Below, piece by piece: positions 769 through 19,387 of a DNA stretch of 64,000 nt. The DNA lies in IMG/VR virus record IMGVR_UViG_3300037510_000134. The stretch is one strand, 5' to 3'. The notes under the pieces are model-generated. The model was given only the letters and a program-made list of their open reading frames with translations, was not told where the DNA came from and ran no database searches. Both the position numbers and the translations under genes were made by a program. Source of the stretch: a virus. Taxonomy: Duplodnaviria; Heunggongvirae; Uroviricota; Caudoviricetes. The number at the start of each line of letters is the position of its first letter. Within the stretch, counting starts at the first letter, position 1.

Positions 769-1158
769 TTATTTTACTACAGGCAAATGTGCATGCAAAT
801 GCTTAACTTCTACTGGCGTATCAGTACAATTCTTCAACAGACGCGATACTTCATCAACAATCACTCTTGACCTATGTCTGCCGCCGCGACAATATACAAG
901 TAAGCTAAGTTCTTCGACACCTGGTCTAATGGACATGTTTTCAAATTCTAGCAGCAGATTCACTAGCCAAACGATTGTATTTGTTACACCTGGACTATTT
1001 AATACAAATGTCCTGATCTCTTTAGTTTCTCCAGAAAGCTCACGTAGTTCTGGCTTTAAGTCCGGATCATATGCTAGATCCTGTACATTGAATACCAGAG
1101 TGGCTTCAGGAATTACATCCATATGTAACGAACCGGCAGACTTAATTGTAAATTTCAT
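769..1158 (-). CDS. Cys-based phosphatase-like protein (CX5R P-loop signature)
   Basis: Sequence VYCRGGRHRS fits the (H/V)C(X)5R(S/T) signature of PTP/dual-specificity and RNA 5'-phosphatases; 129 aa; family assignment is inference. Confidence 0.4.
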   Translation of the reverse strand: MKFTIKSAGSLHMDVIPEATLVFNVQDLAYDPDLKPELRELSGETKEIRTFVLNSPGVTNTIVWLVNLLLEFENMSIRPGVEELSLLVYCRGGRHRSRVIVDEVSRLLKNCTDTPVEVKHLHAHLPVVK

Positions 1159-1295
1159 TATTTCTCAGTCCTTTGTCATTAACCAAAAAAGGAACGATCC
1201 GAATGCCATCATGGCAATAAGCATTACTACCTCTGGCCAACTTGTGTTCTGCTGCTGGTTTTCTGCAATATAAAGTGCTGCTTGTTGAAATAGCA

Positions 1296-1736
1296 TTATT
1301 TCTCCCTAAATACTCGTGGCTCATAACCCTTCTGGATCATGTAGCGCATGCAGTCAGTGGTCCCTGGTGTGGCGACCTTGTTCATGAATACTAACCCAAT
1401 GTCCAGCCCTGCGTCAACCATGTCATGGTTACGGATTGGTCCCGCCGCTCTGCCGTGGGTATCCCAGTCCGGATTTACCGGATCAAGATCCACATCTACA
1501 CCTCTAGATCGCATACTGGGACGAATTTTATTAATAAATTCTACGACCAAACCATCTGCACTAGGCTTGTCTTTGTAAACATTGTTCCCATGTCTAACCT
1601 TGATACGTTTATATCCCAGCTCAACCAAATCACTAATAGCAATGCTTAGCTGTCTAGCTACTTCATTATAGTTGCTATATGTTCTACTGCCAGTACAGAG
1701 AATTACGCCTTCACTCTTCTTGTTTTCTTTTTGCAT
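1296..1736 (-). CDS. Rossmann-like nucleotide-binding protein (SLOG/DprA-like?)
   Basis: Gly-rich N-terminal ILCTGSRTYS and GPIRNHDMVD motifs reminiscent of Rossmann-type SLOG/DprA families; weak. Confidence 0.3.
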   Translation of the reverse strand: MQKENKKSEGVILCTGSRTYSNYNEVARQLSIAISDLVELGYKRIKVRHGNNVYKDKPSADGLVVEFINKIRPSMRSRGVDVDLDPVNPDWDTHGRAAGPIRNHDMVDAGLDIGLVFMNKVATPGTTDCMRYMIQKGYEPRVFREK

Positions 1737-1944
1737 ATTCTTCCATCCAGTCGGGATACTTGGCGTTAAATTTCTCTAATAAATCTTCTGCCTTACAAAG
1801 AAACCATTCGCCTTCTTCCCAATTCCATTGCTCTGGTTCATCAATAATAGACTTCAATGCCGCCAGGCACATTCCCAAATCAAACTCAAATACACTTTGT
1901 GGTTCAAATTGGCCTTCTAAGAATGCTAAGTAAGAGTCATCCAT
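1711..1944 (-). CDS. hypothetical acidic protein (77 aa)
   Basis: ORF track only. Confidence 0.3.
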   Translation of the reverse strand: MDDSYLAFLEGQFEPQSVFEFDLGMCLAALKSIIDEPEQWNWEEGEWFLCKAEDLLEKFNAKYPDWMEEYAKRKQEE

Positions 1945-1964
1945 TTAGAACCTCCCAGTTTTAA

Positions 1965-2240
1965 TCATATATTGCATGCTATGCCATCACCATCACGATC
2001 TAATTTTGATGAATATCCATGTTGACCTCTATACAGAGGCGCTGCACCATGTCTTCTTACGTCATCACAATTCTGATATTCTAAAGGTAATACCGCTGTG
2101 CTAGTTGTAGTAGTTACTGTTATAGTATTATTGATCACTGTTGGGGCGTCATGGTCACTTAAATTTTTGATGATGCCAAGTACCATTAGTGTAGTCCATG
2201 AAACTAGCAATACATATATAACACCTGTCACAATCTTCAT
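1965..2240 (-). CDS. membrane-anchored Excalibur-like calcium-binding domain protein
   Basis: N-terminal hydrophobic helix; C-terminal DRDGDGIACN matches the Excalibur DxDxDGxxCE calcium-binding motif. Confidence 0.45.
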   Translation of the reverse strand: MKIVTGVIYVLLVSWTTLMVLGIIKNLSDHDAPTVINNTITVTTTTSTAVLPLEYQNCDDVRRHGAAPLYRGQHGYSSKLDRDGDGIACNI

Positions 2241-2242
2241 GA

Positions 2243-2950
2243 TTAAAATCTCTCGGTTTTAATCATATAATCATAAGCTAAAATATGCCCGGCACTAGCT
2301 ACATTAAGGCTACGTACAGATCCATACTGAGGAATGGATACAATTCTCGTAGCTAGTTCAATGTACTCGTCTGGCACGCCAACCGACTCTTCACCTAACA
2401 TTAGAATAGTCTTATCATTCCAATTAAACTCTGGCAATGACACCGACTTGTCATACTCATCAGATTCAGCCACTACAAACTCATATCCTTGAGTCTGAGT
2501 AAAATATTCAATTCCAAGCCGGAATGAATCAATATTATCATAATGAACAACATCTTCATAATGAAGGGTTCCTACCGCACCACGCGGGTCGAACTTACGA
2601 AATCCACTATACATAACACCTTGACAGCAAAATGCATTGCAGATTCTAATAATGGCTGAAAAGTTAAAATCTCTAATTGCATTTACAAATGCAAAGATCA
2701 GGTTGTTCCTACGCGGTACAAGAGCATCTCTTACTTCTTCACGAGTCATCCCTTTGAATTCGTCACGTACGTTTAGTGACCAGTTTCCTTCGCGTAGTTC
2801 AACGCGCTCCTGATGACTCAAATTCAAAAGTTGCTGGGTATACATAGCGCTCCCAATCATCGTTCCATTGATTATAATTGATAGTATCTTGCCATGGACA
2901 CCAATGCCCGCTGATATCATAGAACATAGTAATTCTATGATGACCATCAT
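2243..2950 (-). CDS. SpoU/TrmH-family RNA 2'-O-methyltransferase (SPOUT)
   Basis: SPOUT motifs: NFSAIIRICNAF (motif 1), LMLGEESVGVP (motif 2), IPQYGSVRSLNVASAGHI (motif 3). True start may be the internal ATG at 2749 (168 aa), which would remove the overlap with the upstream ParB-like ORF. Confidence 0.75.
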   Translation of the reverse strand: MMVIIELLCSMISAGIGVHGKILSIIINGTMIGSAMYTQQLLNLSHQERVELREGNWSLNVRDEFKGMTREEVRDALVPRRNNLIFAFVNAIRDFNFSAIIRICNAFCCQGVMYSGFRKFDPRGAVGTLHYEDVVHYDNIDSFRLGIEYFTQTQGYEFVVAESDEYDKSVSLPEFNWNDKTILMLGEESVGVPDEYIELATRIVSIPQYGSVRSLNVASAGHILAYDYMIKTERF

Positions 2951-3173
2951 AAACCATACCGTCTATAATTTCTGGTGCAAAGTCTGGCCAAAATCCACGT
3001 TCTTGAACGGATACTAATAAACGTTCGTATTGATAGTCTCTTTTGAATTCAAGATATCCGCCTTCAATCCAATCCTCCGGCTGGATCTCACAAGTACGTA
3101 TACTCATGATATCTTCTATCGGAATAATATGTAAATGAGGCCATTCATTTTGACATGAACTTACGTAACACAT
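2799..3173 (-). CDS. ParB/Srx-like nuclease domain protein
   Basis: DGHHRI motif characteristic of ParB N-terminal/sulfiredoxin nuclease fold; 124 aa. Confidence 0.45.
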   Translation of the reverse strand: MCYVSSCQNEWPHLHIIPIEDIMSIRTCEIQPEDWIEGGYLEFKRDYQYERLLVSVQERGFWPDFAPEIIDGMVYDGHHRITMFYDISGHWCPWQDTINYNQWNDDWERYVYPATFEFESSGAR

Positions 3174-3439
3174 TAACCCTCATTAGAATAATTAGAGCCG
3201 GACATTGGCTTATGGTTAATCTTGTTTCTCTCATCTTGCACTAGCCAGCCATCAATCCACAATGCAGGATTGTGTCTATTATAGTGATGACCACAGAAAA
3301 GCAGTTCGTGTTGCTTGTCGTCAATCATCTTTACCACTCTTACAAAAGCCTGACTACATTGATTTGGACATGCGTCACACCGATCTGCCAATACAAGCTC
3401 TCGGTAAAATTCCTTCTCTTCAACAAGTAGATCATTCAT
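3173..3439 (-). CDS. hypothetical Cys/His-rich protein (88 aa)
   Basis: CDACPNQC and FCGHHYNRH clusters suggest metal binding. Confidence 0.35.
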   Translation of the reverse strand: MNDLLVEEKEFYRELVLADRCDACPNQCSQAFVRVVKMIDDKQHELLFCGHHYNRHNPALWIDGWLVQDERNKINHKPMSGSNYSNEG

Positions 3440-3624
3440 AGCTCCACCCTATCATGTCTCAGATCGATCTGTCACTGTGACATCGATCACCGTAACGCCC
3501 AAGCCTTCCATATCATATATGGTCTCTGTGGCTATATCCGCTGCATCGTCCATAGTGAAGGCGTTAACTTCTACCTCTACTTCTAATTTGACTTTACAGG
3601 TTTTCATGACTTCATTATATCACG

Positions 3625-3879
3625 TTAACCATTCAGAAGCTTGCCGGTCGGAAACCAGGCCAACATTCCGCTTGGTAAGATCTCATAAGCCATGTAGCCT
3701 TCTACATATGCTACTTCCTCTACTGGATTTAGACTAGAACGCACCATGAACTCCAGGTAAGATGGAAATTCCTTTTCAATAATTGCAAAATTAATGTTAA
3801 AGGTTTTATCATCTTTACCTGGAGACATGGCACCTCTTTCTAGCATCGCAAAGAAGATATTACGAGGCAGGTCAGTCAA
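3625..3879 (-). CDS. hypothetical protein (84 aa)
   Basis: ORF track only. Confidence 0.3.
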   Translation of the reverse strand: MTDLPRNIFFAMLERGAMSPGKDDKTFNINFAIIEKEFPSYLEFMVRSSLNPVEEVAYVEGYMAYEILPSGMLAWFPTGKLLNG

Positions 3880-4144
3880 GTCCTAGAGCCTTCCTGACAA
3901 TCTTAATTTGTTCATCAATCATTTCATCAGTATAGCCCATTTTATGCAATGAGTCACGCTGTAAAATGTCAAGTTTTTTGGTGAACTCTTGCATAGCCTC
4001 AATTGTTTGCAGACTTAATTCTGCATCAAACCATTCTGAGTTAACAAGAATAGAATGAATTTGTAACCAAAGAATGTGAATTTGTGCAACACCAGTACTT
4101 ACAGCAGTATGTATCTGTTCGTGAGTGTATCCACTTAAATCCAT
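3872..4144 (-). CDS. hypothetical protein (90 aa)
   Basis: ORF track only. Confidence 0.3.
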   Translation of the reverse strand: MDLSGYTHEQIHTAVSTGVAQIHILWLQIHSILVNSEWFDAELSLQTIEAMQEFTKKLDILQRDSLHKMGYTDEMIDEQIKIVRKALGLD

Positions 4145-4155
4145 TTATTTACTCC

Positions 4156-4455
4156 TTAAGGATTTCTCTGCCAAACACCCGGCGCGAATTCAGCAGGCGT
4201 ACCATTAACCATACAATGATTATCTTTGCTTACGGTGCCACCCTTTGAATCGCAAATTCTAACACTTTCCTCATTGAACCTGTCTTGATTAATAGTAGCA
4301 CCACCGGCCCAAAGCAGTAGTGCAGAAAGTGCGCAACCGAGACCTACCATAGCACTTGATGGACTATCCTTACGCCATGCCAACAGCCAAAAAATAACGG
4401 CACACGCTGCCAAAACAATGGCAATAATAAAGAGAATGTTCATCATCGCTCCCAA
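4156..4455 (-). CDS. small membrane protein, paralogue A (99 aa)
   Basis: N-terminal TM helix; C-terminal VRICDSKGGTVSKDNHCMVNGTPAEFAPGVWQR closely matches the adjacent ORF. Confidence 0.45.
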   Translation of the reverse strand: MGAMMNILFIIAIVLAACAVIFWLLAWRKDSPSSAMVGLGCALSALLLWAGGATINQDRFNEESVRICDSKGGTVSKDNHCMVNGTPAEFAPGVWQRNP

Positions 4456-4775
4456 ACGCCGGGGATAAATTCAACGGGCTTACCATCAACAAAACAGTGA
4501 TTATCCTTTGACACCACTCCATGTTTTGCACTACAAATTCTTACTGTTTCCTGATCATATTCATTGGCCTTGTTAATACCGCCAGCCGTACCCGCGATTA
4601 GAAGTCCAAGACCTATCACCATAGCAACGATACTGCCAAATACTTCTGGGCCATCAAATGCATCTGCAAGAGCCAATAGGCCACAAATAAGAACTATTCC
4701 ACCAAGAATAACCATAATAATAAAAACAGCGACCATTTGCACTCCTAAAATTCTCCAGGCGCTACTTGATAGCAC
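4443..4775 (-). CDS. small membrane protein, paralogue B (110 aa)
   Basis: Two TM helices; C-terminal VRICSAKHGVVSKDNHCFVDGKPVEFIPGVWER; tandem duplicate of 4156..4455. Confidence 0.45.
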   Translation of the reverse strand: MLSSSAWRILGVQMVAVFIIMVILGGIVLICGLLALADAFDGPEVFGSIVAMVIGLGLLIAGTAGGINKANEYDQETVRICSAKHGVVSKDNHCFVDGKPVEFIPGVWER

Positions 4776-5677
4776 CTGACATTAATGGATCTCCACATAT
4801 CTACTACTTGATTACGATCATCATAAACATTAATCACGTTATAGTTTTGTGCGATCTGTTCCATAAAGATTTCATATTTGATGATGAAATCTGCACGAGT
4901 ATCACCGGTTTTACGCATAAAGACTGGTATTTCATATCCTACAGGCAATTGAGTATGTAGACGTAATGATTCTTCCGTAGCTTGCCTACATGAATCTTCT
5001 CTACCTGATAGAACAATGAGATCATACCCTAGAACGTAATCGTCACGCATCTGCTGCACTACATCTTCGTATGGTTCATCAAGGTGAACCTTTGTGTAAT
5101 CATATGGACTACGTCTATCACCGTGGTTCATTAACGTACCATCTACGTCGTAAATCTTTGCTTTTGGTTTGCTAGGATCTCTGACGTATGGGACTAGTTT
5201 AACAGGTGCCGGGCGGTTGATCAAGGGATTTGCAGGGAACTTCCCTTGTGCAAAGTAACGCTTGTGCATCGCTCGGATCACATCTGACCCTACCTCATGC
5301 CCTCCGTCTTCGCCACGGATACCATCACGTAGAATACAAACTTCTAGTGGAGTATCCATATCTACGACTTCAATTTCTGCCGCAAAGAAGTCAGCAATCT
5401 TTACCAAACCTTTAACGTATTTGGCATTGAGATTTGTATCTGAACTGATAACATGCCTACCGGCTTTCAGTCCTGCTCGAATGAGCGCATGTTGTTGGAG
5501 CGTAATAGTGTCTTCGTATGGCCCTGGCTTGGTATCCAGGCCCGCCATAAATCGCAAATGATCACGATTCACAATCATGGCTGGCTTGTCGTTAGTCATG
5601 CTCTCAGCCACTATAGCGCGGGCAAAGGTGTCTTTGCCCGACGCTGGTAGGCCACGAATAATCGTGAGTTTAGTCAT
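4745..5677 (-). CDS. pseT: polynucleotide 5'-kinase/3'-phosphatase (T4 Pnkp-like)
   Basis: N-terminal P-loop GLPASGKDT kinase domain; C-terminal HAD phosphatase with DVDGT motif and ending CYQVAPGEF, collinear with T4 Pnkp (DVDGT ... CWQVASGDF). Confidence 0.9.
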   Translation of the reverse strand: MTKLTIIRGLPASGKDTFARAIVAESMTNDKPAMIVNRDHLRFMAGLDTKPGPYEDTITLQQHALIRAGLKAGRHVISSDTNLNAKYVKGLVKIADFFAAEIEVVDMDTPLEVCILRDGIRGEDGGHEVGSDVIRAMHKRYFAQGKFPANPLINRPAPVKLVPYVRDPSKPKAKIYDVDGTLMNHGDRRSPYDYTKVHLDEPYEDVVQQMRDDYVLGYDLIVLSGREDSCRQATEESLRLHTQLPVGYEIPVFMRKTGDTRADFIIKYEIFMEQIAQNYNVINVYDDRNQVVDMWRSINVRCYQVAPGEF

Positions 5678-5806
5678 CTTTTAATACCATATTCGTCTTG
5701 TTGTGAATTTGACACTTAGGAACCTTGGTAGCCGTTATTGTAAATTTACAATTTGGCTCCGGACACTTATATTTATTCCACGTATATTTACTCATATATC
5801 CTTCTG

Positions 5807-6250
5807 CTATAGATACTTTTCAATAAGATTTGCGATGTCTTCGAAACTGACGCCTGAATCATTCAATGCTGAACCGTTAACACTTGTTGAAATATACCTA
5901 TCGCTGACTTCTAGCGTTCTAAATTCATCAGTCTCATACTTTTCAACAAGATAATTGAAATCTTCAAGTGTTAGATCCATACAAATATCTCTGTCGTTAC
6001 CCGTCCCTGCCCAATTCATAACTGAAGAAGGCAATACTGATTCGCAATCATCCCATAAAGTGGCAGTAGTAGAGCAGCAATCACATGTAGTAACTACTCT
6101 TGATTCAATAGGTGAAATTTCACAAAGCACGCCTAGACAACAATATTTACCGCTGTCTGTCTTTAGACTAAACTTACCTTGTGGATAGTTACCACTGCGT
6201 AGCGCGTCTACCCACTGTTGCTTTACTTCTGGATTTAGAGTTGTATTCAT
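5807..6250 (-). CDS. hypothetical Cys-rich protein between Pnkp and RNA ligase (147 aa)
   Basis: ORF track; CCLGVLC and TTCDCCS clusters; no family recognised. Confidence 0.35.
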   Translation of the reverse strand: MNTTLNPEVKQQWVDALRSGNYPQGKFSLKTDSGKYCCLGVLCEISPIESRVVTTCDCCSTTATLWDDCESVLPSSVMNWAGTGNDRDICMDLTLEDFNYLVEKYETDEFRTLEVSDRYISTSVNGSALNDSGVSFEDIANLIEKYL

Positions 6251-7539
6251 CCCAATTCCTCCGTGTCAGTTACTTCCCCGGTTTTTTCAGCTTCTGTCAG
6301 AAGCTTTGATTCATGTTCAAAGAACTTTGGTGACTTTGCCTTTAGAATATATGGAGCTAGCCCATCTACTCTTACGCAAACTCCTTCATCTACAAGACCA
6401 GCTTCTAGCGGAGGACATTCTTTGAAACCATGATCATTGAATCTAACGTCCAAATAGTCTTCCACATAAGACTTAAAGTGTTCTGCCTTCATTCTAACTA
6501 GCTCTGGTACATGCTTGACACCAATATCCTTACAGAATTCCTTAACCTGATCCCAAGTTAGGTCAACAATTCGACCTTGCGGATTCACATAGGCTACTCT
6601 ATATACATAAAGATCACTTACGCCCTGTGGAATGTTATAAGTATAGCTCGGCTGAATTGGCTTATTAGAGTCTGACCATCCAATTAGTTCACCGTAGACA
6701 ATAAACCCCTCTGGGAGCAGACCTTTGAGACGTGCGCCTTCTCTTGTCCAAATATCTTCTTGGTAGAAATGATTTTGGTCTGGATCATTTGGATCTTTGA
6801 TCACCCGGCGAGAACCATAAACATAGTCGTATTCAGTTTCCTGAACTTTTACACCGAAACGCTTTGCAATACGCTCACGCCAACCTAGCTTACGCTTTAC
6901 TAGTGTGTTCGCAATACGAATACTTGTTCCATGTAGCTTAGCTGTAACGATTAATTCAGTGTCATCTGACAGCCCTCCTGCGTTACGGAAATAATTGTCC
7001 GTGTCAAAGTGCTGCGGAAGGTACTTTTCATCTACACGACGTTCCTTTGGTGCCTTGTTCTTTTCTACCCTAGACTGCTGAACCTTTACGACGTACTTAC
7101 GGCAAATCTCCTGATCACCGATCTTGTCAAAGACGTCTCCCGGCTTTAGTCTTTCAATATCAATACCTGTAAATGATAGAGAGTTCAGAGGCATAAATAG
7201 TGCATCAGAGCGATGTCCTCTAAACTTCATTGCCTTTACCCGGCGATTATCTTCTAGATAACCTCTAATGCCACCAATACGATTTAGATCATCATGACGA
7301 TAAAGGTTGTTATAAGATGTATATTCATGAGAAAGCTGAGTTTCGGCAGGGAACACAATTCCAATATCCCCAACCTTAGTATCCTTACCAACAATAGCTT
7401 GAAAACCTAGCAAAGGTGTTCCAACTACATTATCACAGTTATCTAGCTCATTAATTGCTACGATCTCTACAACTACTGCCGCGTAATTCTTATTTACTGG
7501 CTCTTCAAGCTTCATTCTATCTCCTTTTTGCCCGGCCAA
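6247..7539 (-). CDS. ATP-dependent RNA ligase (Rnl2/Rnl5-like nucleotidyltransferase)
   Basis: Motif I TAKLHGTS fits the KxHGxN/S adenylyl-lysine motif of Rnl2-type RNA ligases; about 200-aa N-terminal extension as in DraRnl/NgrRnl; adjacent to Pnkp as in T4. Confidence 0.65.
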   Translation of the reverse strand: MAGQKGDRMKLEEPVNKNYAAVVVEIVAINELDNCDNVVGTPLLGFQAIVGKDTKVGDIGIVFPAETQLSHEYTSYNNLYRHDDLNRIGGIRGYLEDNRRVKAMKFRGHRSDALFMPLNSLSFTGIDIERLKPGDVFDKIGDQEICRKYVVKVQQSRVEKNKAPKERRVDEKYLPQHFDTDNYFRNAGGLSDDTELIVTAKLHGTSIRIANTLVKRKLGWRERIAKRFGVKVQETEYDYVYGSRRVIKDPNDPDQNHFYQEDIWTREGARLKGLLPEGFIVYGELIGWSDSNKPIQPSYTYNIPQGVSDLYVYRVAYVNPQGRIVDLTWDQVKEFCKDIGVKHVPELVRMKAEHFKSYVEDYLDVRFNDHGFKECPPLEAGLVDEGVCVRVDGLAPYILKAKSPKFFEHESKLLTEAEKTGEVTDTEELG

Positions 7540-7886
7540 GTTCTAAGATTCTTAGCGGGTGTCCAAATTCTTTCCCCATTTTCATAATAACCAGAGGTTA
7601 TTCCTACCAGCGCAATGTCATCTTCTATCCATTTGATTACTGCGGTAACCCCTCCGGCGCACAATATTCTAAAAGCGTAGTAGTACTTTAGCTTAATTTT
7701 TGCGCGGGTTAAGCGAATAAGTACTGAATCTAGAGTATTGTATTCTGCTAATACCATTTTATTACGGTAAAAGCAGACATAAATGTAGTTGCGACCATAG
7801 TCAATCCAGGCTATCGTTTCACCTTCTGGTGACAGCAACCTGCCGCTATCGATCCTTAATTTAAGTAGTTCTTCTCCTGTTAACAT
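7512..7886 (-). CDS. hypothetical protein (124 aa)
   Basis: ORF track only. Confidence 0.3.
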   Translation of the reverse strand: MLTGEELLKLRIDSGRLLSPEGETIAWIDYGRNYIYVCFYRNKMVLAEYNTLDSVLIRLTRAKIKLKYYYAFRILCAGGVTAVIKWIEDDIALVGITSGYYENGERIWTPAKNLRTWPGKKEIE

Positions 7887-7897
7887 TGGCTTTCTGC

Positions 7898-8449
7898 CTA
7901 AAAGATTTCGTACACCATATCCTTAAATTTCTCCTCTGAGTTGTAACAACTACTTGATACCCTTATAAATTCAACTTGTTCTTTGTCAAGTCTAGGATGC
8001 ATTTCCCCCGACGTCTTCAGCTCTCTGGCATTAAGCAAAAGCCTAAATGCATGTTTTCTTTTCTTTTCTTGGTCTTTATTAGACCAAAAGAAATTTAAGG
8101 CTGTACGCCTGTAGGTTTCGAGAATGGCTGGAATGTAATTTACTAGTTCATTTTTAATATGTGCTGAAATGTTCATCCAGCCATTCTCTTCCACCCATGC
8201 TTCTTTTGGAGAAAATAGTACTTCGACTGCCTGTGGAACTCCCTTGAAACAAAGATCTGTAAATCTATCAAGGGTGACTTCTACTTCGTCCAAATCTCCT
8301 TGAATTCGCTGCTGCGCCTTCTTCTTTGGCCTGTAACGTTGATTGTAAAAATCATATATAGTATAGTAATCGTAATCAGAATTGGCGTGAGCTGTTCCGT
8401 AAAGATGAGAGCCGTGTTGACATTTCAATACCACGAACTTTTTTGCCAT
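7898..8449 (-). CDS. Pol-beta-superfamily nucleotidyltransferase (minimal NTase)
   Basis: N-terminal GSHLYGTAHANSDYDYY fits the hG[GS]x9-13Dh[DE]h nucleotidyltransferase fold signature. Confidence 0.5.
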   Translation of the reverse strand: MAKKFVVLKCQHGSHLYGTAHANSDYDYYTIYDFYNQRYRPKKKAQQRIQGDLDEVEVTLDRFTDLCFKGVPQAVEVLFSPKEAWVEENGWMNISAHIKNELVNYIPAILETYRRTALNFFWSNKDQEKKRKHAFRLLLNARELKTSGEMHPRLDKEQVEFIRVSSSCYNSEEKFKDMVYEIF

Positions 8450-8816
8450 TCTTTACACCATTTCTGACTATGACCCCCAATTCTTCGTTGGTTATATCTG
8501 ATATATCTCCCTTAAGACTATTACATCTAGAGCACATTGGTTGCATATTCTCTAGAGTATTTCTACCACCTAAAGCTTTCGGAATGATGTGATCTACTGT
8601 CATTAGTTTCATTTTGTCAGTGTATACATCAACCGGGTGAAACTCTGGAATAGTCTTATGTTGAAGCTTTACTAACTTTGTACCCTGTATACCGCAAGCA
8701 ACGCATGTAGTACCAAAGAAGTAGAAAACCCTCAACCTATGATGGCTTTTATAGTTTTCTAGCTCGGACAACGGATATTCGCTCAGTATCTCCATATCTG
8801 ATAACCGATATCCCAC
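8376..8816 (-). CDS. HNH homing endonuclease
   Basis: HIIPKALGGRNTLENMQPMCSRCNSLKG HNH motif; 3' end overlaps the NTase start by 74 nt. Confidence 0.7.
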   Translation of the reverse strand: MGYRLSDMEILSEYPLSELENYKSHHRLRVFYFFGTTCVACGIQGTKLVKLQHKTIPEFHPVDVYTDKMKLMTVDHIIPKALGGRNTLENMQPMCSRCNSLKGDISDITNEELGVIVRNGVKNGKKVRGIEMSTRLSSLRNSSRQF

Positions 8817-9344: not shown

Positions 9345-9923
9345 TCATTTTAGATCCTCTTCTACTTTTGCAGCTACATCTAGTGCTGCTTGAATTGCTC
9401 CCCTGCCAGATACATTTTCATAAACCGAGCGATATTTAGCTTCATCGCATTTCACAATCAACTTGCGTAGTAGATCATTAAATTCTTTCAATTCATCATC
9501 ACTTACGTGACCTAGATCATGTAGCTTTAGAGTATTGAATACCTCTTCCGCAACCATGTTTGGATCATTGAATACTTTAAGCTCTTCATATTTAAGTAGA
9601 CTATCTAGCAGACTAACAGTTATTAGTCCGATACCACTACTTGGCTTTACATGGTCAGTGTAGAATCCTTGAGTATGCGGAAAAGGGTTCCATTTTCCGC
9701 CATTTAGTTGTGCAGCGATGAGGCCGATGAATCCCATAACAAACAAAAATGGAATAAAGGCCATAAAAAATGAACCCGCAACGGTCGAGCCCATAAAAAC
9801 AATCGCACTTGCGGCGGACACACCAAATAATGTATAACCGATGCCTCCCTTGGTCCAAATGAACTTCTCATAATAATCTTTCTTGATCTGATATTTGAGA
9901 TATGGTCCAACTACCTTGTACAT
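9345..9923 (-). CDS. membrane protein (192 aa)
   Basis: Two or three hydrophobic helices in the N-terminal half. Confidence 0.4.
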   Translation of the reverse strand: MYKVVGPYLKYQIKKDYYEKFIWTKGGIGYTLFGVSAASAIVFMGSTVAGSFFMAFIPFLFVMGFIGLIAAQLNGGKWNPFPHTQGFYTDHVKPSSGIGLITVSLLDSLLKYEELKVFNDPNMVAEEVFNTLKLHDLGHVSDDELKEFNDLLRKLIVKCDEAKYRSVYENVSGRGAIQAALDVAAKVEEDLK

Positions 9924-10057
9924 CGCGTCTCCTCTCTGGTGTGCCTGTAGTCTAACATGGGTGACCCCGAGAGGTCAAGACCTTCTCGGGGGTTTCTACT
10001 GTCGGGCCACGAAGAGTTGAACTTCGTCCGCTCCTGTCCAAGAGGACCATGCTACCG

Positions 10058-10507
10058 TCACACCCTAGCCCGATCAACTTTCCAGAAATTAAAATAGTTT
10101 GCCGTTCTAATCAAATGACAATTAGCACATCTAACATCGCATTTAGCAATTTCTTTCTCTATTAGAGCAATACTATAATCATACATTTCCGAAATGTTGT
10201 ATAGCTTTTCAACATTATCTCTGTGATCGAATTGGAGAACTATTGGATTATTGTTACCGCAGTCTATACAGGAATTCTTCTCTAGTACAGACCAAATAAA
10301 TTCTCTTACTTTCTCTCTTCGTTCGCGAACAAGCTCATATTTCCTATTTATATAAGTCTTGCCAGCTTGCCTATCATGATCATAGACTTTATAACAAGCC
10401 TTGCACCACGATGCACGTGTCCCTTTTGCTTTATTTCTCCACGAAAAGTTGGATTCTTCTTTCCATGCATCACATTTATTACATAGTTTCATGTATTGAG
10501 TATACAT
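10058..10507 (-). CDS. HNH endonuclease
   Basis: CxxC zinc knuckles plus DHRDN and CANCH motifs typical of HNH nucleases. Confidence 0.65.
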   Translation of the reverse strand: MYTQYMKLCNKCDAWKEESNFSWRNKAKGTRASWCKACYKVYDHDRQAGKTYINRKYELVRERREKVREFIWSVLEKNSCIDCGNNNPIVLQFDHRDNVEKLYNISEMYDYSIALIEKEIAKCDVRCANCHLIRTANYFNFWKVDRARV

Positions 10508-10833
10508 GGTTTGAACTCATAAAGCAAAGGTTCAAGTTACTTACTCTTGCTCTTAGCTTTACGCCTTTGAGGTAGCGCGAAGATAATTAACTTGCCAATT
10601 TCAAGTTTGGTCTGTCGGCCCAGCATTTCATATTCTTCGCGTAAACGTTCTAGTTCAGATTGATCCTTTAGAGTAATAACATGATTCTTTTGCTTGGCCA
10701 TTAGTTTTTGCCTTTCTCGGCTTTTTCTTCTCGCTTTTTCATTTCTTCAATTACTTTTTGAACCTGCATTGCGGTGCGCAATTTGTCTTCTTCTGTTGGT
10801 TCGTCTGCCATTGTGACTCCATCTTACATGTAG

Positions 10834-10857
10834 GGAGGGGGTTTGTCAACCCCCTCC
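10834..10857. terminator. GC-rich hairpin (8-bp stem GGAGGGGG/CCCCCTCC, 8-nt loop)
   Basis: Perfect inverted repeat 7 nt downstream of the stop of ORF 10864..11106; T-rich tract only on the plus-strand side. Confidence 0.4.
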
Positions 10858-10863
10858 TGCTAC

Positions 10864-11106
10864 TTACTTATTTGGTGTTCCGTCGCTTGTAATAACCCCA
10901 TCATTAAGGTTATCTACCTTTTTGACCTCAAATGAATCCTCTGGAATTCTTTGGGTTGAAACAATAAGTGCCTTAGCCTTTTCTTCGTGATTAGTTTCAC
11001 CACGATTCATAGGTGCAGTACCTGCATGCTCAACTTCAACAGACTTTCCATCCTTGGAAACTGAGTATCTATAAATACGCTTTGCTGCGTCAGTCATATT
11101 TGTCAC
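10864..11106 (-). CDS. hypothetical protein (80 aa)
   Basis: ORF track. Confidence 0.3.
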   Translation of the reverse strand: MTNMTDAAKRIYRYSVSKDGKSVEVEHAGTAPMNRGETNHEEKAKALIVSTQRIPEDSFEVKKVDNLNDGVITSDGTPNK

Positions 11107-11378
11107 CTCCGACGTTTCTGACTTCCTATATATAGTATACCCAATATTAATGGTATTTAATCACATATATCCACGTGATTTTGCGCTTACCACCGCCGCA
11201 GTTAAGGCGCAAGCAGTTGCTCCGTCTCCCCAACTATATTCTTGTGTAGTGACCGTGCTACCTTCACGAATTGCATCAGCTAGGGTGAAGTTAGTTGTTA
11301 CTTCTAGTTCAATTGTACCAAGTTCAGCTTCAAGTTCACGTTGACGACGTAGTTCCGCTGCCTTTTCTTCTACTCTAC

Positions 11379-12185
11379 TCATACATTTCCTCCAAATGTT
11401 TGTACTGCCATAACAACCTTTTCCCAAGTTATATTCTCATGCTTGCCTTCAATATCATTTCTATAAAATAGAATATTGTAAGTGTCTGTTAACATATTAT
11501 ATCTCATAATAAACAATCTTTTGTCTTCGTATTTAACTACTGTTTGATCAAAGCTATCTTTCTCACCTAAGATTAAAGGGCTATTTAGTTCTAATGCATT
11601 TACAAGTATATCTAAGAATAGAAATAGAGCCTCTGATTGTATAGCTGTTGTAATTGCCTTAGCTTTTAGATCCTTTTTATTAGACTTTAACTGGTCTTTT
11701 AAACCTTGAATCTTAGGGAACAAAGGGAAGAAATTTGGCTTACTGTCCTTTGGCTTTTGCTCAAGGGTCTTTGCTTCAGTAAGACCAGCATCATCATATT
11801 GATCATATTTCTTAACACCAGGTGGACGAAACGTGAGGAATCCAGAAGTATCTAATTGCTTCTTAATACCTTCTTGAACCACTCCATGCTTGGCTAATAC
11901 ACCGATAATTTCTTTTAATGCATCTGTACTTAAATCTGTGTTTATATAAATATGAGAATGTCCTTCAGTTGTCGATGGCGCAATAAAATGTTCTTGATCT
12001 AAATCAAGAAACAATGTATGTTTGCCATTAACTTTTTGGGAGCTGATCAAATTTGCATCAAGGGGGTGCACTTCTACGTGGGCTCTTTCAAAGCCTGGAC
12101 CGCTCGAATCATGACTTAAGCTAGCGCGAAAGAATACGTTTGATTTTAACCACCTTGGCAAATTTAGAAAGTTTTCCAGCTTCAT
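11379..12185 (-). CDS. hypothetical protein (268 aa)
   Basis: ORF track; no motif recognised. Confidence 0.4.
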   Translation of the reverse strand: MKLENFLNLPRWLKSNVFFRASLSHDSSGPGFERAHVEVHPLDANLISSQKVNGKHTLFLDLDQEHFIAPSTTEGHSHIYINTDLSTDALKEIIGVLAKHGVVQEGIKKQLDTSGFLTFRPPGVKKYDQYDDAGLTEAKTLEQKPKDSKPNFFPLFPKIQGLKDQLKSNKKDLKAKAITTAIQSEALFLFLDILVNALELNSPLILGEKDSFDQTVVKYEDKRLFIMRYNMLTDTYNILFYRNDIEGKHENITWEKVVMAVQTFGGNV

Positions 12186-12627
12186 TGTTCACCCCCTGCG
12201 GTACTGGGAATGCAATATCCTTTATGTCCGCAACGTTTTCAATCCAGTCTGCAATATCCTCGCGCTTCCACTTGTACATATCATTGAGATCAATAACTGT
12301 ACTCCATAGCTTTCCATTTTCACCCGTTACAGGATGCTTAACTATTAAATTAACACCTGGCAATTGTTGAGATAAGTCTGCGTGATGTGTGCTACTGGAA
12401 TGCTCTTTAAACCCTATAGATTTGAGTATAGCCTTTTTAATAACTACATTAACGCCTTCTTTATCCATAAGATCTTCTAGGGCCTGTTTACTGTCTTCTG
12501 TAGTGAAATATAGTTTGACCATTTCAAGATCAGTGTACGCTATAATAACCCGGCGAGACTCCAGTAAAAGATCAGAATCTAATTGTACAGGATCTGTTAT
12601 ATCAATTAGTCCCATAATTCGCCCCAA
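12121..12627 (-). CDS. hypothetical protein (168 aa)
   Basis: ORF track. Confidence 0.4.
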   Translation of the reverse strand: MGRIMGLIDITDPVQLDSDLLLESRRVIIAYTDLEMVKLYFTTEDSKQALEDLMDKEGVNVVIKKAILKSIGFKEHSSSTHHADLSQQLPGVNLIVKHPVTGENGKLWSTVIDLNDMYKWKREDIADWIENVADIKDIAFPVPQGVNNEAGKLSKFAKVVKIKRILSR

Positions 12628-18388: not shown

Positions 18389-19387
18389 CTAGAAGGTACA
18401 AGGCCCTTCACAAGTCGTACAATGTTGTGGCCATTGAAGATTTACAATTTCTGACTTAGTTACATCTATAATAGTTAGTTGATTTTCATCAACCGGCGTT
18501 TCTTCCTCATCACACATACACCCGCCACAGCCACATGTACAATAACCACATTCATCACATTCGTCTGAGTCATAGTAATCTTCTTCATCGTCAAAAGTGT
18601 CATCTACATCTAATGCATCAGTAATCTCATTCTCAATGATTTCTAATACTGTATATCTACAGGCTCGTAGCTTTTGCCCCCCGGCGTCTGATGGAACGCT
18701 TACTACATCCCGAGGATCTACTAGTACCTTTAGAATAGCACCATTACGACCCCACCATTGAGCGTATTCCCATGTACCAATATGTAGACCATAAGAACAA
18801 GTTTGATCTGGATCGAATGTTACATCTGCACGGGGCATTTCGATAACAAAACCAACGTTATTAGGCACCTTGCCATTAACTAGTTCACCATTAACGATTG
18901 CCTTACCGCTATGTACAGAGTGAAATCCACCATTACCATCAGACTCTACGCCCTTATAACCGATGATCTTACCATCTTCAGTAATTGTAAAGTCGTGACT
19001 GTTCAACCAACTGTAAAGCTGTGTAACTGATTCTTGATTCGGATTTGTTGCTAGCCGTTCATAGAACTTTACCAGTGGAACAAAATCTCTATCTTCTTCT
19101 AAGAATCTGACAATTTGTCTTGTTAGGACAGTATCTACTTCGTCACCATCAAAGTATACTCTACTCCCGGCCACGCGGACTCGCTCCGATAGTGATTCAA
19201 ACTTTCTAGCAACTACCCTAGACATATCAAATAGATCTACTACTGATTCATCATCATCCTCTAGACCTGTGACAATCGCCTGCCAATTTGGATGGTCACT
19301 TGTTGCAGTATACATTACATTGTTGTGAAATAGGGTAACGTTTCCGGTACCATCTTCACGGTCAAATCTTGAGTATTGTAAACTCAT
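18389..19387 (-). CDS. rIIB: rIIB-like protein
   Basis: Central/C-terminal region (FTITEDGKIIGYKGV ... DPDQTCSYGLHIGT ... LKVLVDPRDVVSVPSD ... KLRACRYTVLE) matches T4 rIIB motifs (IEITEDGYFYAWKVV ... DDTQTCSRGLHVCS ... VKVKVHPRDVVSIPID ... KMRTCQYEVVE); extra Cys/acid-rich C-terminal tail. Confidence 0.75.
   Translation of the reverse strand: MSLQYSRFDREDGTGNVTLFHNNVMYTATSDHPNWQAIVTGLEDDDESVVDLFDMSRVVARKFESLSERVRVAGSRVYFDGDEVDTVLTRQIVRFLEEDRDFVPLVKFYERLATNPNQESVTQLYSWLNSHDFTITEDGKIIGYKGVESDGNGGFHSVHSGKAIVNGELVNGKVPNNVGFVIEMPRADVTFDPDQTCSYGLHIGTWEYAQWWGRNGAILKVLVDPRDVVSVPSDAGGQKLRACRYTVLEIIENEITDALDVDDTFDDEEDYYDSDECDECGYCTCGCGGCMCDEEETPVDENQLTIIDVTKSEIVNLQWPQHCTTCEGPCTF

Follow-up and report, generated by a model that had tools for sequence, protein, structure and literature searches.

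Organization of the locus

The presence of genes for a polynucleotide kinase-phosphatase (Pnkp), an RNA ligase and a Pol-beta nucleotidyltransferase (NTase) next to a long tRNA array in a tailed phage raises the question of how many of the surrounding genes take part in RNA repair. The genes occupy positions 769–8449 of a 64,000-nucleotide stretch from a large, uncultured Caudoviricetes phage (IMG/VR record IMGVR_UViG_3300037510_000134), the whole of which is called the window here. In a sequence-only reading, this region had been regarded as one extended repair and modification island. All open reading frames listed in that reading were found where it had placed them, all on the minus strand, and its assignments of Pnkp, ligase, SpoU methyltransferase and NTase hold, whereas that of a phosphatase was wrong (Table 1). 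ARAGORN detected 22 tRNA genes in the window instead of the approximately 24 that had been claimed.

The three repair genes, in the order RlaP-type NTase, RNA ligase and Pnkp, lie in a tightly packed and co-oriented cassette of about 3.7 kb (4745–8449). When the region is read as transcribed, the last tRNA gene precedes this cassette by some 1.2 kb. ATGA overlaps couple a 124-codon gene to the ligase gene, as well as the ligase gene to the next one. We consider it probable that this cassette is a counter-defence pathway for the repair of breaks in RNA, most likely tRNA, in which the ligase was swapped from an Rnl1-type to an Rnl5-type enzyme.

Table 1 Features of the locus, with positions in the window and basis of assignment
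Feature	Position	Strand	Basis or remark
Stand-alone RapZ C-terminal (RNA-binding) domain protein	769..1158	-	PF22740 5e-17; NF003828 RapZ 4e-12
146-aa phrog_289 protein	1296..1736	-	phrog_289 at 9e-17
SpoU/TrmH-class SPOUT RNA 2'-O-methyltransferase	2243..2860	-	PF00588 at 8e-23
Small ParB/Srx-fold protein, invariant GHHR motif	2799..3173	-	Variable accessory gene
T4-type bifunctional polynucleotide 5'-kinase/3'-phosphatase (Pnkp), end-healing	4745..5677	-	AAA_33 + HAD_PNKP
Zinc-ribbon mini-ORF, 41 codons, YKCPExxCxFTI...PKCQxH	5670..5795	-	Translations compared
DUF8296 protein	5807..6250	-	PF26948; separates the ligase and Pnkp genes in this genome alone
ATP-dependent RNA ligase, 422 aa from ATG at 7515, sealing enzyme	6247..7515	-	PF09414
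124-aa remnant of T4 Rnl1-type RNA ligase nucleotidyltransferase domain	7512..7886	-	Degenerate Rnl1-type fragment
Short RlaP-family Pol-beta nucleotidyltransferase, 183 aa	7898..8449	-	PF10127
HNH endonuclease	8376..8816	-	PF01844/PF14279 at about 1e-11
tRNA-Pro(TGG), last gene of 22-tRNA array 10001-35539	10001..10072	-	ARAGORN

Enzymes of the repair cassette

In profile searches, Pnkp combines an AAA_33 kinase domain with a HAD_PNKP match at 7e-44. It can be aligned over its full length with Pnkp1 (4xrp, 5e-36) and with T4 Pnkp (1ltq, 1.5e-31), and it carries the P-loop (G9–K15), D39 and the DVDGT motif at position 177. The start of its gene is overlapped by a zinc-ribbon mini-ORF that was overlooked in the sequence-only reading and is kept in the relatives L020 and L022.

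The ligase, of which the open reading frame spans 6247–7539, joins an N-terminal OB domain to an NTase domain in its C-terminal part, an architecture resembling that of Rnl5/DRB0094. It matches PF09414 (2.7e-15), the OB profile PF21189 (0.0024), phrog_968 (1e-104) and, at the N-terminus, the OB domain of PHA02142, and the residues K193-LHG-S, E276, E377-G378 and K392-x-K394 are invariant in 10 homologs. The family matches and catalytic motifs thus bear out the earlier view of Pnkp and the ligase as a healing and sealing pair. Rnl5-type ligases such as DraRnl and NgrRnl have been characterised as sealers of nicks in duplex RNA rather than anticodon-loop specialists, which counts against the explanation that we prefer.

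[quoted passage not shown] In vitro, RlaP enzymes add one or two untemplated NMPs to RNA 3'-OH ends (Carruthers et al. 2025). With a cleaved-tRNA mimic, the characterised enzymes extend the 3'-OH of the broken anticodon loop in preference to the acceptor 3' end, and their activity is compatible with 5'-phosphate ligases. We infer that the phage RlaP restores one or two lost nucleotides where the 3'-OH end of an RNA has been trimmed, ahead of ligation. Its gene start is overlapped over 74 nt by the 3' end of an HNH endonuclease gene, which lies upstream of RlaP in all three close relatives and is a neighbour, possibly a homing-type element.

The NTase could also mainly serve the 3' ends of phage tRNAs, for example by CCA repair or completion, in which case its adjacency to ligase and Pnkp would be secondary. 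None of the 22 tRNA genes in the window encodes CCA, a canonical CCA-adding enzyme is lacking among the precomputed Pfam hits over the surveyed window parts (about 1–46 kb), and some annotators label the NTase a tRNA nucleotidyltransferase. RlaP-like NTases are found in or beside the tRNA arrays of relatives, and the NTase is embedded in such arrays in more than ten lineages; it occurs there without an adjacent ligase in BE-cluster phages, phage Trina and several IMG/VR contigs. Since the short enzyme of the Streptomyces BE-cluster phages has neither ligase nor Pnkp nearby, the primary job of the NTase may be tRNA-related yet independent of ligation. However, PF10127 is not the CCA-adding family, the known RlaPs add no more than two untemplated nucleotides, and their published substrate preference disfavours the CCA-like repair proposed earlier. 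Furthermore, three lineages have ligase and Pnkp directly following RlaP even though the ligase was exchanged, and phage tRNAs are normally served by host CCA-adding enzymes. A main function at tRNA 3' ends is rather unlikely on these grounds, and both its family and the gene order kept across lineages place RlaP with the healing pair, as the sequence-only reading had proposed for the NTase.

Replacement of the ligase

The window clade, consisting of the window and its relatives L020, L021 and L022, has the gene order RlaP, remnant, ligase and Pnkp. At the same position, the more distant L024 and L026 carry RlaP, an intact Rnl1-type ligase (PF09511) and Pnkp, and the order is thus common to the window clade and these two lineages despite the differing ligase type; in L041 and L045 an Rnl1-like ligase lies 3–4 kb away from RlaP. 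The ancestral cassette of this phage group would have comprised RlaP, an Rnl1-type ligase and Pnkp, and sealing would have passed to the Rnl5-type ligase in the window clade. Because the Pnkp sequences of this clade cluster with those of Rnl1-type cassettes in a neighbour-joining tree (with a moderate bootstrap value of 0.75), the swap appears to have been confined to the ligase, with retention of Pnkp.

The displaced gene has left a trace. Two proteins of the region had been described as uncharacterised: the one encoded at 5807–6250 is a member of DUF8296, and the one at 7512–7886 is a degenerate fragment of an Rnl1-type ligase. As compared to an intact enzyme, the latter is shortened by about 60 residues at the N-terminus and 150 at the C-terminus and stops short of motifs IV and V. 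The region of motif I lacks a lysine, the Glu of motif III is replaced by Lys, and there is a 12-residue deletion. With every catalytic motif gone, the open reading frame might be a decaying and functionless pseudogene fragment. We consider this very improbable, since the frame is intact in all seven known copies, with 121–124 codons and 38 invariant positions, the predicted fold is compact and confident, and the ATGA overlap of its stop codon with the ligase start is retained. Its dN/dS of 0.10–0.17, a rough value due to saturated dS (>1.5), is the same as that of RlaP, ligase and Pnkp. Judged from its residues, the protein is catalytically dead, yet it is conserved.

The Rnl1 gene would thus have shrunk to a 124-aa fragment without catalytic residues that was kept by selection and became translationally coupled to the new ligase. 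Because it is still under purifying selection and coupled in this way, the fragment is probably a non-catalytic accessory protein, acting in substrate binding or as a scaffold. Its structural neighbours in BFVD include a 'Split RnlA' of a T4-like phage and a 'T4 RNA ligase 1-like N-terminal domain-containing protein', and such split or truncated entries are evidence that Rnl1 genes fragment in phages. The BFVD entries are larger (214–321 aa) than the window fragment of 124 aa, in which all catalytic motifs are lost. In the RNA-repair literature cited here and among the family-library matches, we found no description of a catalytically dead protein derived from Rnl1 that is encoded between RlaP and an active ligase.

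Neighbouring genes

According to the sequence-only reading, the whole of 769–8449 would act as a single pathway, with SpoU as a functional analogue of Hen1 that masks repaired junctions or protects tRNAs. In such a pathway, the RapZ_C, ParB/Srx and DUF8296 proteins would supply RNA binding or end processing. The genes are indeed all co-oriented and tightly packed, RapZ_C is an RNA-binding domain, and the solved structure most similar to the window Pnkp is Pnkp1 of the Pnkp1-Rnl-Hen1 complex. SpoU genuinely belongs to the RNA 2'-O-methyltransferase class and has invariant SPOUT motifs, and its gene follows that of Pnkp at a distance of 1–2 kb both in the window clade and in L024. Nevertheless, two membrane proteins and about six small ORFs intervene between Pnkp and SpoU, and in relatives the genes are scattered. 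In L026, RlaP, ligase and Pnkp are retained, but there is no SpoU gene near the cassette. Rhodococcus phage Trina has its SpoU gene at 1 kb from a PF09414-like gene but at 92 kb from the NTase and HAD-Pnk genes, and in a megaphage SpoU adjoins EF-G and tRNA genes. The synteny of SpoU and Pnkp is weak evidence either way because the genomes are collinear. Among solved structures, SpoU most resembles TrmH Gm18 methyltransferases (1zjr at 8e-13), which act on intact folded tRNA; the SPOUT and Hen1 folds are unrelated, and phage XacN1, which has a true Pnkp and Hen1 pair, encodes a Hen1 homologue rather than SpoU. A single extended pathway is accordingly improbable. The methyltransferase call itself stands, while membership of the repair pathway is not supported: SpoU is most likely, by its similarities, a TrmH-like enzyme that 2'-O-methylates tRNA independently of repair, and a Hen1-like role is speculation.

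The protein proposed to be a CX5R Cys-phosphatase is instead a RapZ C-terminal domain, as indicated by PF22740 and by alignment of its CRGGRHRS motif with the CTGGKHRS of RapZ itself (5o5s, CxGGxHRS). Its gene, preceded by a 137-nt gap, is absent from L020–L022 and thus occurs in one of the four close genomes, that of the window, whereas RapZ_C genes of other phages sit by helicase, integrase or ATPase genes, away from repair genes; it is a genome-specific insertion. DUF8296 is a widespread phage family (1308 homologs), also restricted to one of the four close genomes at this position and found in another phage context with no ligase nearby, and we do not consider it part of the repair system. 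The ParB/Srx gene occurs in three of the four, L022 lacking it, and is also absent from the more distant L024 and L026. The phrog_289 protein is encoded next to a dCMP deaminase here, to ThyX in Trina and to thymidylate kinase in Samisti12, and together with the deaminase it looks like nucleotide metabolism rather than RNA repair. Two membrane proteins and an Excalibur-domain protein are also encoded in this stretch, as are several small ORFs without RNA link. Beyond the cassette, 769–8449 mostly shows the dense packing of neighbouring genes that is usual in large phage genomes.

Relation to known repair systems

In T4, Pnkp and Rnl1 repair tRNA against the anticodon nuclease PrrC, and the phage also has Rnl2 and an RlaP homologue, NrdC.11. 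Its repair genes are dispersed, whereas those of the window are contiguous. Shared with T4 are the full-length T4-type Pnkp, the Rnl1-type ligase of the ancestral cassette and the heal-then-seal logic; the active ligase differs (Rnl5-type, OB plus NTase, versus Rnl1). The earlier statement that the pathway is more elaborate than that of T4 was overstated in view of NrdC.11 and of published RlaP–ligase operons. Such operons, in which RlaP is combined with Pnkp and a 5'-phosphate (ATP-dependent) RNA ligase, were described by Burroughs and Aravind (2016; cited in PMC7824862 and PMC12776372). The window cassette likewise places a PF10127 NTase, with its three catalytic Asp residues, side by side with genes for a kinase-phosphatase and an ATP-dependent RNA ligase, in a phage with many tRNAs. 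It differs by a short RlaP (profile positions 20–173 of 249) and by the dead Rnl1-derived protein.

Mycobacteriophages of cluster E (244, Cjw1-like) and Xanthomonas phage XacN1 have ligases of the same family (49–54% identity). Pnkp adjoins the ligase in phage 244 and six IMG/VR contigs, as in the window, whereas tblastn detected neither RlaP nor an Rnl1 remnant at such cluster E/XacN1-type loci, and phage 244 has an HTH protein downstream of the ligase. In the bacterial Pnkp1-Rnl-Hen1 and Pnkp-Hen1 systems, repair is combined with immunity (PMC4411300). Among solved structures the window Pnkp is nearest to Pnkp1, and ligase and kinase-phosphatase are separate proteins in both cases. The window cassette has no Hen1 homologue, and its methyltransferase is SPOUT/TrmH-like, about eight genes away from Pnkp and inconsistently linked to the cassette. 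In the bacterial systems a non-catalytic partner, the N-terminal domain of Hen1, activates the ligase, which is a precedent for the dead fragment acting as an accessory.

In the repair pathway that we favour, Pnkp would remove the 2',3'-cyclic or 3'-phosphate and phosphorylate the 5'-OH left by a host ribotoxin of the anticodon-nuclease type, RlaP could put back one or two nucleotides in case the 3'-OH end had been trimmed by the toxin as well, and the Rnl5-type ligase would close the 3'-OH/5'-PO4 break. RNA-repair gene sets with end-healing, nucleotide-adding and ligase functions are already described, and their linkage is published. The cassette is unusual in one respect: a ligase of another type has taken the place of the original one, which survives as a conserved and, by its residues, catalytically dead fragment.

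Core genes of the repair cassette

Three genes on the minus strand, coding for an RlaP nucleotidyltransferase (NTase), an Rnl5-type RNA ligase and a T4-type Pnkp, form the core of the island. The open reading frames that the sequence-only reading had listed are all present, and its guesses for Pnkp, the ligase and the SpoU methyltransferase were borne out by profile matches (HAD_PNKP, 7e-44; PF09414 and phrog_968, 1e-104; PF00588, 8e-23), as was that of a Pol-beta NTase, which belongs specifically to RlaP (PF10127). The kinase half of Pnkp is covered by AAA_33 over residues 4–141, with the Walker A motif GLPASGKDT at residue 9 and the kinase aspartate, D39, in NRDHLR at residue 37. The phosphatase half matches HAD_PNKP over profile positions 1–143 of 143 and carries DVDGT at residue 177. 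Both T4 Pnkp and Pnkp1 from the Pnkp1-Rnl-Hen1 complex of bacteria (PMC4411300) can be aligned to the protein over its entire length, and its predicted activity is that of a T4-type bifunctional 5'-kinase/3'-phosphatase.

Among 10 homologs of the ligase, motif I (K193-L-H-G-T-S) with the lysine nucleophile K193 does not vary, nor do E276, E377-G378 and K392-x-K394 of motifs III, IV and V. Its nucleotidyltransferase domain matches PF09414 at 2.7e-15, the match to the OB family PF21189 over residues 22–118 reaches 18.7 bits (below the cut-off of 27), and the N-terminus shows a weak similarity to TIGR02306 DRB0094 (6.6e-4). PDB sequence searches with RlaP and with the ligase gave nothing meaningful, and the ligase had no sequence match to the solved Rnl5 structures. 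The called gene begins at the ATG at 7515, not at a TTG start. Ligases that are 49–61% identical to it occur in phage XacN1, in mycobacteriophages and on several IMG/VR contigs. The genes downstream of two of these ligases were considered as RlaP candidates and rejected, since the gene of phage 244 encodes an HTH protein and that of XacN1 matches no family. In XacN1, rIIA and rIIB lie directly upstream of the ligase.

RlaP (183 aa) scores 46.1 bits against PF10127, for which the curated cut-off is 23, and matches only profile positions 20–173 of 249; its hG[GS] motif (G13, S14) and three catalytic carboxylates (D25, D27 and D54) are invariant across six lineages. The family takes its name from operonic association with RNA ligases (Burroughs and Aravind 2016, via PMC7824862 and PMC12776372) and includes NrdC.11 of T4; among the repair NTases of jumbo phages it is the most frequent, with a distribution that mirrors that of the ligases. 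RlaPs of Pseudomonas extend RNA 3'-OH ends by one or two NMPs and, in a colicin-E5-cleaved tRNA mimic, favour the 3' end of the 5' half (Carruthers et al. 2025). Their proposed role is to restore, before ligation, nucleotides taken by 'smart' ribotoxins such as RloC, and the product is described as directly compatible with 5'-phosphate ligases. In view of the operonic association, T4 NrdC.11 and the Pseudomonas activity, an NTase next to a ligase and Pnkp represents a type of system already known, and the proposal of a healing pathway more elaborate than that described for T4 is overstated. The combination is an accepted and partly characterised counter-defence of phages and bacteria against tRNA-cleaving toxins.

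A different function can be envisaged for the NTase, since it may be a tRNA 3'-end (CCA) enzyme. None of the 22 tRNA genes found by ARAGORN encodes a 3' CCA and no canonical CCA-adding enzyme was recorded in the stretch surveyed (about 1–46 kb of the window and the 4 kb that precede it), so that all phage tRNAs would need post-transcriptional CCA addition, and the NTase is embedded in the tRNA arrays of many lineages. Streptomyces BE-cluster phages have the same short NTase among their tRNA genes, where neither a ligase nor Pnkp is close by. Rhodococcus phage Trina has it among tRNAs, the second gene downstream coding for a metallophosphoesterase, with a HAD-only 'polynucleotide kinase' at a distance of 7 kb. 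However, the measured preference of the RlaP family is for anticodon-loop breaks, and the NTase has a fixed position before ligase and Pnkp; the gene adjoins an RNA ligase in the window, in three close relatives (L020–L022) and in two more distant lineages (L024 and L026), but not in the BE-cluster phages. Because of this preference and this fixed place, break repair is the better reading. An HNH endonuclease gene at the RlaP start, which each of the three close relatives has at the same place, may be a homing-type element with a part in remodelling the cassette.

Ligase exchange and the Rnl1 remnant

The three close relatives, which have long contigs and were found through homologs of the 124-aa ORF, are collinear with the window: the HNH gene, RlaP, the 124-aa ORF, ligase, Pnkp, two membrane proteins and small ORFs are followed by DUF7455, ParB/Srx (where present), SpoU, a 77-aa ORF, the 146-aa ORF, dCMP deaminase and, later, WhiB. 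Conservation of the island as a block thus holds for gene order and fails for part of the gene content, as the RapZ_C and DUF8296 genes are confined to the window, ParB/Srx is absent from L022, and an Excalibur-domain gene is variable in the clade. Since whole genomes are collinear at this distance, the conservation of the block says little on function, and such synteny is weak evidence in either direction.

More distant relatives were obtained from alignment-based IMG/VR scans, single-protein scans with SpoU and RlaP having returned nothing. In L024 (RlaP 44% and SpoU 63% identical), the order is RlaP, a 355-aa protein, Pnkp, DUF7455, an unrelated 106-aa ORF, SpoU, a homolog of the 146-aa protein and dCMP deaminase; L026 (RlaP 40% identical) has RlaP, a 364-aa protein, Pnkp and, later, a 146-aa homolog, without SpoU. 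The 355-aa and 364-aa proteins are ligases of the T4 Rnl1 family (PF09511, about 1e-15 to 4e-16) with KLDGS, motif III, motif IV and KxK all intact, and in two further distant lineages (L041 and L045) Rnl1-like genes lie 3–4 kb from RlaP. The slot between RlaP and Pnkp is always occupied by a ligase, the type of which is interchangeable (Rnl1 or Rnl5), and this is the strongest comparative evidence here that the three genes act together. Pnkp of the window clade clusters with Pnkp of Rnl1-type cassettes and not with Pnkps that adjoin Rnl5-type ligases elsewhere (NJ tree; the bootstrap of 0.75 is a rough value).

Two ORFs of the island had been left as uncharacterised: one is a member of DUF8296, and the other, the 124-aa ORF, is a displaced fragment of an Rnl1-type ligase. 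The latter has only seven homologs in an indexed search of a 5.8-billion-protein database, and neither it nor the ParB-like, 146-aa and 77-aa proteins have a match in Pfam (E up to 10), NCBIfam or PADLOC. Its origin was recognised by comparison with the ligase of L024, to which it is 27% identical over residues 102–201 (E 8e-10); tblastn detected an Rnl1-type ligase match for the 124-aa ORFs of all four members of the window clade, and profile–profile comparison gave 97.5% probability (E 5e-12). The AlphaFold model is confident (pLDDT 88.9, pTM 0.82) and has an Rnl1-like nucleotidyltransferase fold, the structural neighbours of which in BFVD are phage RNA ligases, some of them entries for split or truncated Rnl1. 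Motif I has no lysine at residues 20–34, where the DKLDGS region reads (V/I)DYG, the motif III glutamate is replaced by lysine, 12 residues are deleted, and the chain stops before motifs IV and V. With the motif I lysine and motifs III, IV and V missing, the protein is an Rnl1-family derivative and no active ligase.

Decay of this gene was considered and rejected, since all seven copies are intact (121–124 codons, with 38 invariant positions) and dN/dS is 0.10–0.17, in the same range as for RlaP, ligase, Pnkp and SpoU, although these values are rough due to saturated dS. Its stop codon overlaps the ligase start codon (ATGA). A 103-aa ORF between remnant and ligase in L020 was rejected by hhalign as the missing Rnl1 C-terminus.

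In the simplest history, the ancestral cassette would have consisted of RlaP, Rnl1 and Pnkp, the window lineage would next have acquired the Rnl5-type ligase, and the Rnl1 gene would have been cut down to a non-catalytic domain that was retained by selection. Replacement of a ligase with retention of a selected, dead Rnl1 domain is a modest new variant; the rest of the core is of a known kind. It is conceivable, though we consider it rather doubtful, that the 124-aa protein has been retained as a pseudoenzyme subunit in a hybrid repair complex, where it targets broken tRNA anticodon loops or docks RlaP and Pnkp onto the new ligase. The Rnl5-type ligase alone would in that case be a generic nick sealer. 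Such a subunit would parallel bacterial Pnkp-Hen1 systems, in which the ligase is activated by the N-terminal domain of Hen1.

Other genes of the island

The proposed pathway stands as to its core of RlaP, ligase and Pnkp, whereas its extension to the other island genes is unsupported. The methyltransferase has invariant SPOUT motifs 1–3 (N60, R72, G156-E157-E158, I176-P177 and S184-L185-N186) and TrmH enzymes as top PDB matches, and its assignment as a TrmH-class SPOUT 2'-O-methyltransferase is credible. Regarding orthology (TrmH Gm18, TrmL, TrmJ or RlmB), all equivalog scores are far below cut-off, the top match being TrmH with 42 bits against a cut-off of 227. The gene is rare in phages (13 records match). 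In the window clade and L024 it follows 1–2 kb downstream of Pnkp, whereas the L026 locus lacks it. Trina carries it close to a small PF09414-like gene and NAD-salvage genes, at 92 kb from the NTase, and a 484-kb megaphage has it flanked by EF-G with tRNAs on one side and a TnpB-like gene on the other. Such a distribution is more in line with an enzyme of tRNA or translation-related modification than with an obligate component of repair. The idea that it acts as an analogue of Hen1 is speculative. A Pnkp/Hen1-type 'repair with immunity' system is not supported, as no Hen1-like (Rossmann-fold) domain was called in about 1–46 kb of the window and the 4 kb that precede it, and the SPOUT-class enzyme is the only methyltransferase of the island. 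A true phage pairing of Pnkp with a Hen1 homologue is found in XacN1. A function of the SPOUT methyltransferase in immunising repaired or phage tRNAs against re-cleavage is less likely still than a pseudoenzyme-subunit role of the 124-aa protein. In Trina, a group of genes for a 181-aa PF09414 'RNA ligase'-like protein, a PRTase-domain protein and NAMPT lies 1 kb downstream of the SpoU homolog, in a context of NAD metabolism; the 181-aa protein, an odd small member of the ligase family, is weak evidence for a link between SpoU and repair.

The protein taken for a CX5R phosphatase turned out to be a stand-alone RapZ C-terminal, RNA-binding domain (PF22740, 5e-17, profile positions 3–119 of 121). 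Its 129 residues match only RapZ positions 173–275, the N-terminal P-loop domain being absent, and the supposed phosphatase motif, CRGGRHRS at residue 90, aligns with CTGGKHRS of RapZ and represents the conserved CxGGxHRS. The RapZ_C match is full length and no phosphatase family was matched. In other phages, stand-alone RapZ_C genes adjoin helicase, integrase or AAA-ATPase genes. DUF8296, a family of more than 1,300 mostly phage-like members, occurs in another phage context among unrelated small ORFs. The ParB-like protein has a ParB/Srx fold with a DGxHR-type motif, its closest folds including kinases (SerK, SbnI), sulfiredoxin and ParB nucleases; an L024 ORF at the corresponding position was rejected by hhalign as a diverged ParB/Srx. 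The 146-aa phrog_289 protein, which we take to resemble a DUF2493/SLOG-type nucleotide-binding protein, has dCMP deaminase (window), ThyX (Trina) and thymidylate kinase (Samisti12) as neighbours, which suggests a place in nucleotide metabolism.

The stretch from Pnkp to SpoU contains two paralogous membrane proteins, together with several small ORFs. The pair, kept in L020–L022, shares a Cys-containing C-terminal module, RIC..KGG.VSKDNHC.V.G.P.EF.PGVW, and one of the two has a weak holin-family match (5.9e-4). DUF7455 lies 0.65–2.4 kb downstream of a Pnkp or HAD-Pnk gene in the window clade, L024 and Trina, and accompanies Pnkp more persistently than SpoU does. Upstream of Pnkp, a zinc-ribbon mini-ORF that the sequence-only reading had overlooked has clear homologs at the same position in L020 and L022, L021 leaving no room for it; a palindrome in what appeared to be a 129-nt gap lies inside this conserved ORF and was discarded.

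Coordinates of features in the window and in related sequences
Feature	Sequence	Coordinates	Strand	Remark
RapZ_C protein	window	769-1158	-	
146-aa phrog_289 protein	window	1296-1736	-	annotated 'GTP-binding domain'
phrog_289 homolog	Trina (L018)	3843-4217		
phrog_289 homolog	L017	6982-7440		
SpoU	window	2243-2860	-	
ParB/Srx	window	2799-3173	-	
DUF7455	window	3173-3439	-	Cys-rich small protein
DUF7455	L024	9483-9698		
DUF7455	Trina (L039)	20119-20250		
Membrane protein	window	4156-4455	-	small; paralog of next
Membrane protein	window	4443-4775	-	small; directly after Pnkp
Pnkp	window	4745-5677	-	
Zinc-ribbon mini-ORF	window	5670-5795	-	41 codons (MSKYTWNKYKCPEPNCKFTITATKVPKCQIHNK...); overlaps Pnkp start, fills apparent upstream gap
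DUF8296	window	5807-6250	-	
Rnl5-type ligase	window	6247-7515	-	
124-aa ORF	window	7512-7886	-	
RlaP	window	7898-8449	-	
HNH endonuclease	window	8376-8816	-	74-nt overlap with RlaP start
22 tRNA genes	window	10001-35539		
rIIA-like and rIIB-like genes	window	18389-21342	-	
tmRNA gene	L040	19913-20288		
gp28-gp26	Trina (L018)	9572-12477		

Genome and host

The window is contained in an uncultured phage contig of about 130 kb (Logan SRR12692787, 130,080 bp; JGI contig, 130,177 bp). Comparison of the island with 50,697 phage records by megablast gave no nucleotide similarity to any phage isolate, which identifies a lineage without close isolate. The DnaE-type polymerase is 48% identical to that of Streptomyces BE-cluster phages (Stanwilliamsviridae), and the genome also encodes DnaB, primase, RecA, rIIA/rIIB-like proteins and WhiB, which together indicate a distant kinship to large actinophages. 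WhiB, the DnaE affinity and relatives on Rhodococcus are actinophage hallmarks, yet GC of the window is only about 40%; WhiB in combination with this GC content suggests a low-GC actinobacterial host, for example of a freshwater or marine lineage. The genes for the rIIA-like (652 aa, HATPase_c) and rIIB-like (332 aa) proteins are found midway through the tRNA array. On L040, an IMG/VR contig of a related phage, a tmRNA gene ends a 20-tRNA array that has an RlaP-like NTase inside. Promoter and terminator scans gave signals at background level.

Implications

Since the combination of RlaP, ligase and Pnkp is already an accepted counter-defence, the locus mainly adds an uncultured, low-GC, actinophage-like member to the systems of this kind. 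It also cautions against taking tightly packed runs of phage genes as pathways. The evolutionary point is that a ligase type that can be exchanged between RlaP and Pnkp is good comparative evidence for joint function. If the 124-aa fragment is a specificity or scaffold subunit, it would show that phage RNA-repair modules are rebuilt from parts, and it would offer a handle on how nick-sealing ligases can be directed to tRNA.
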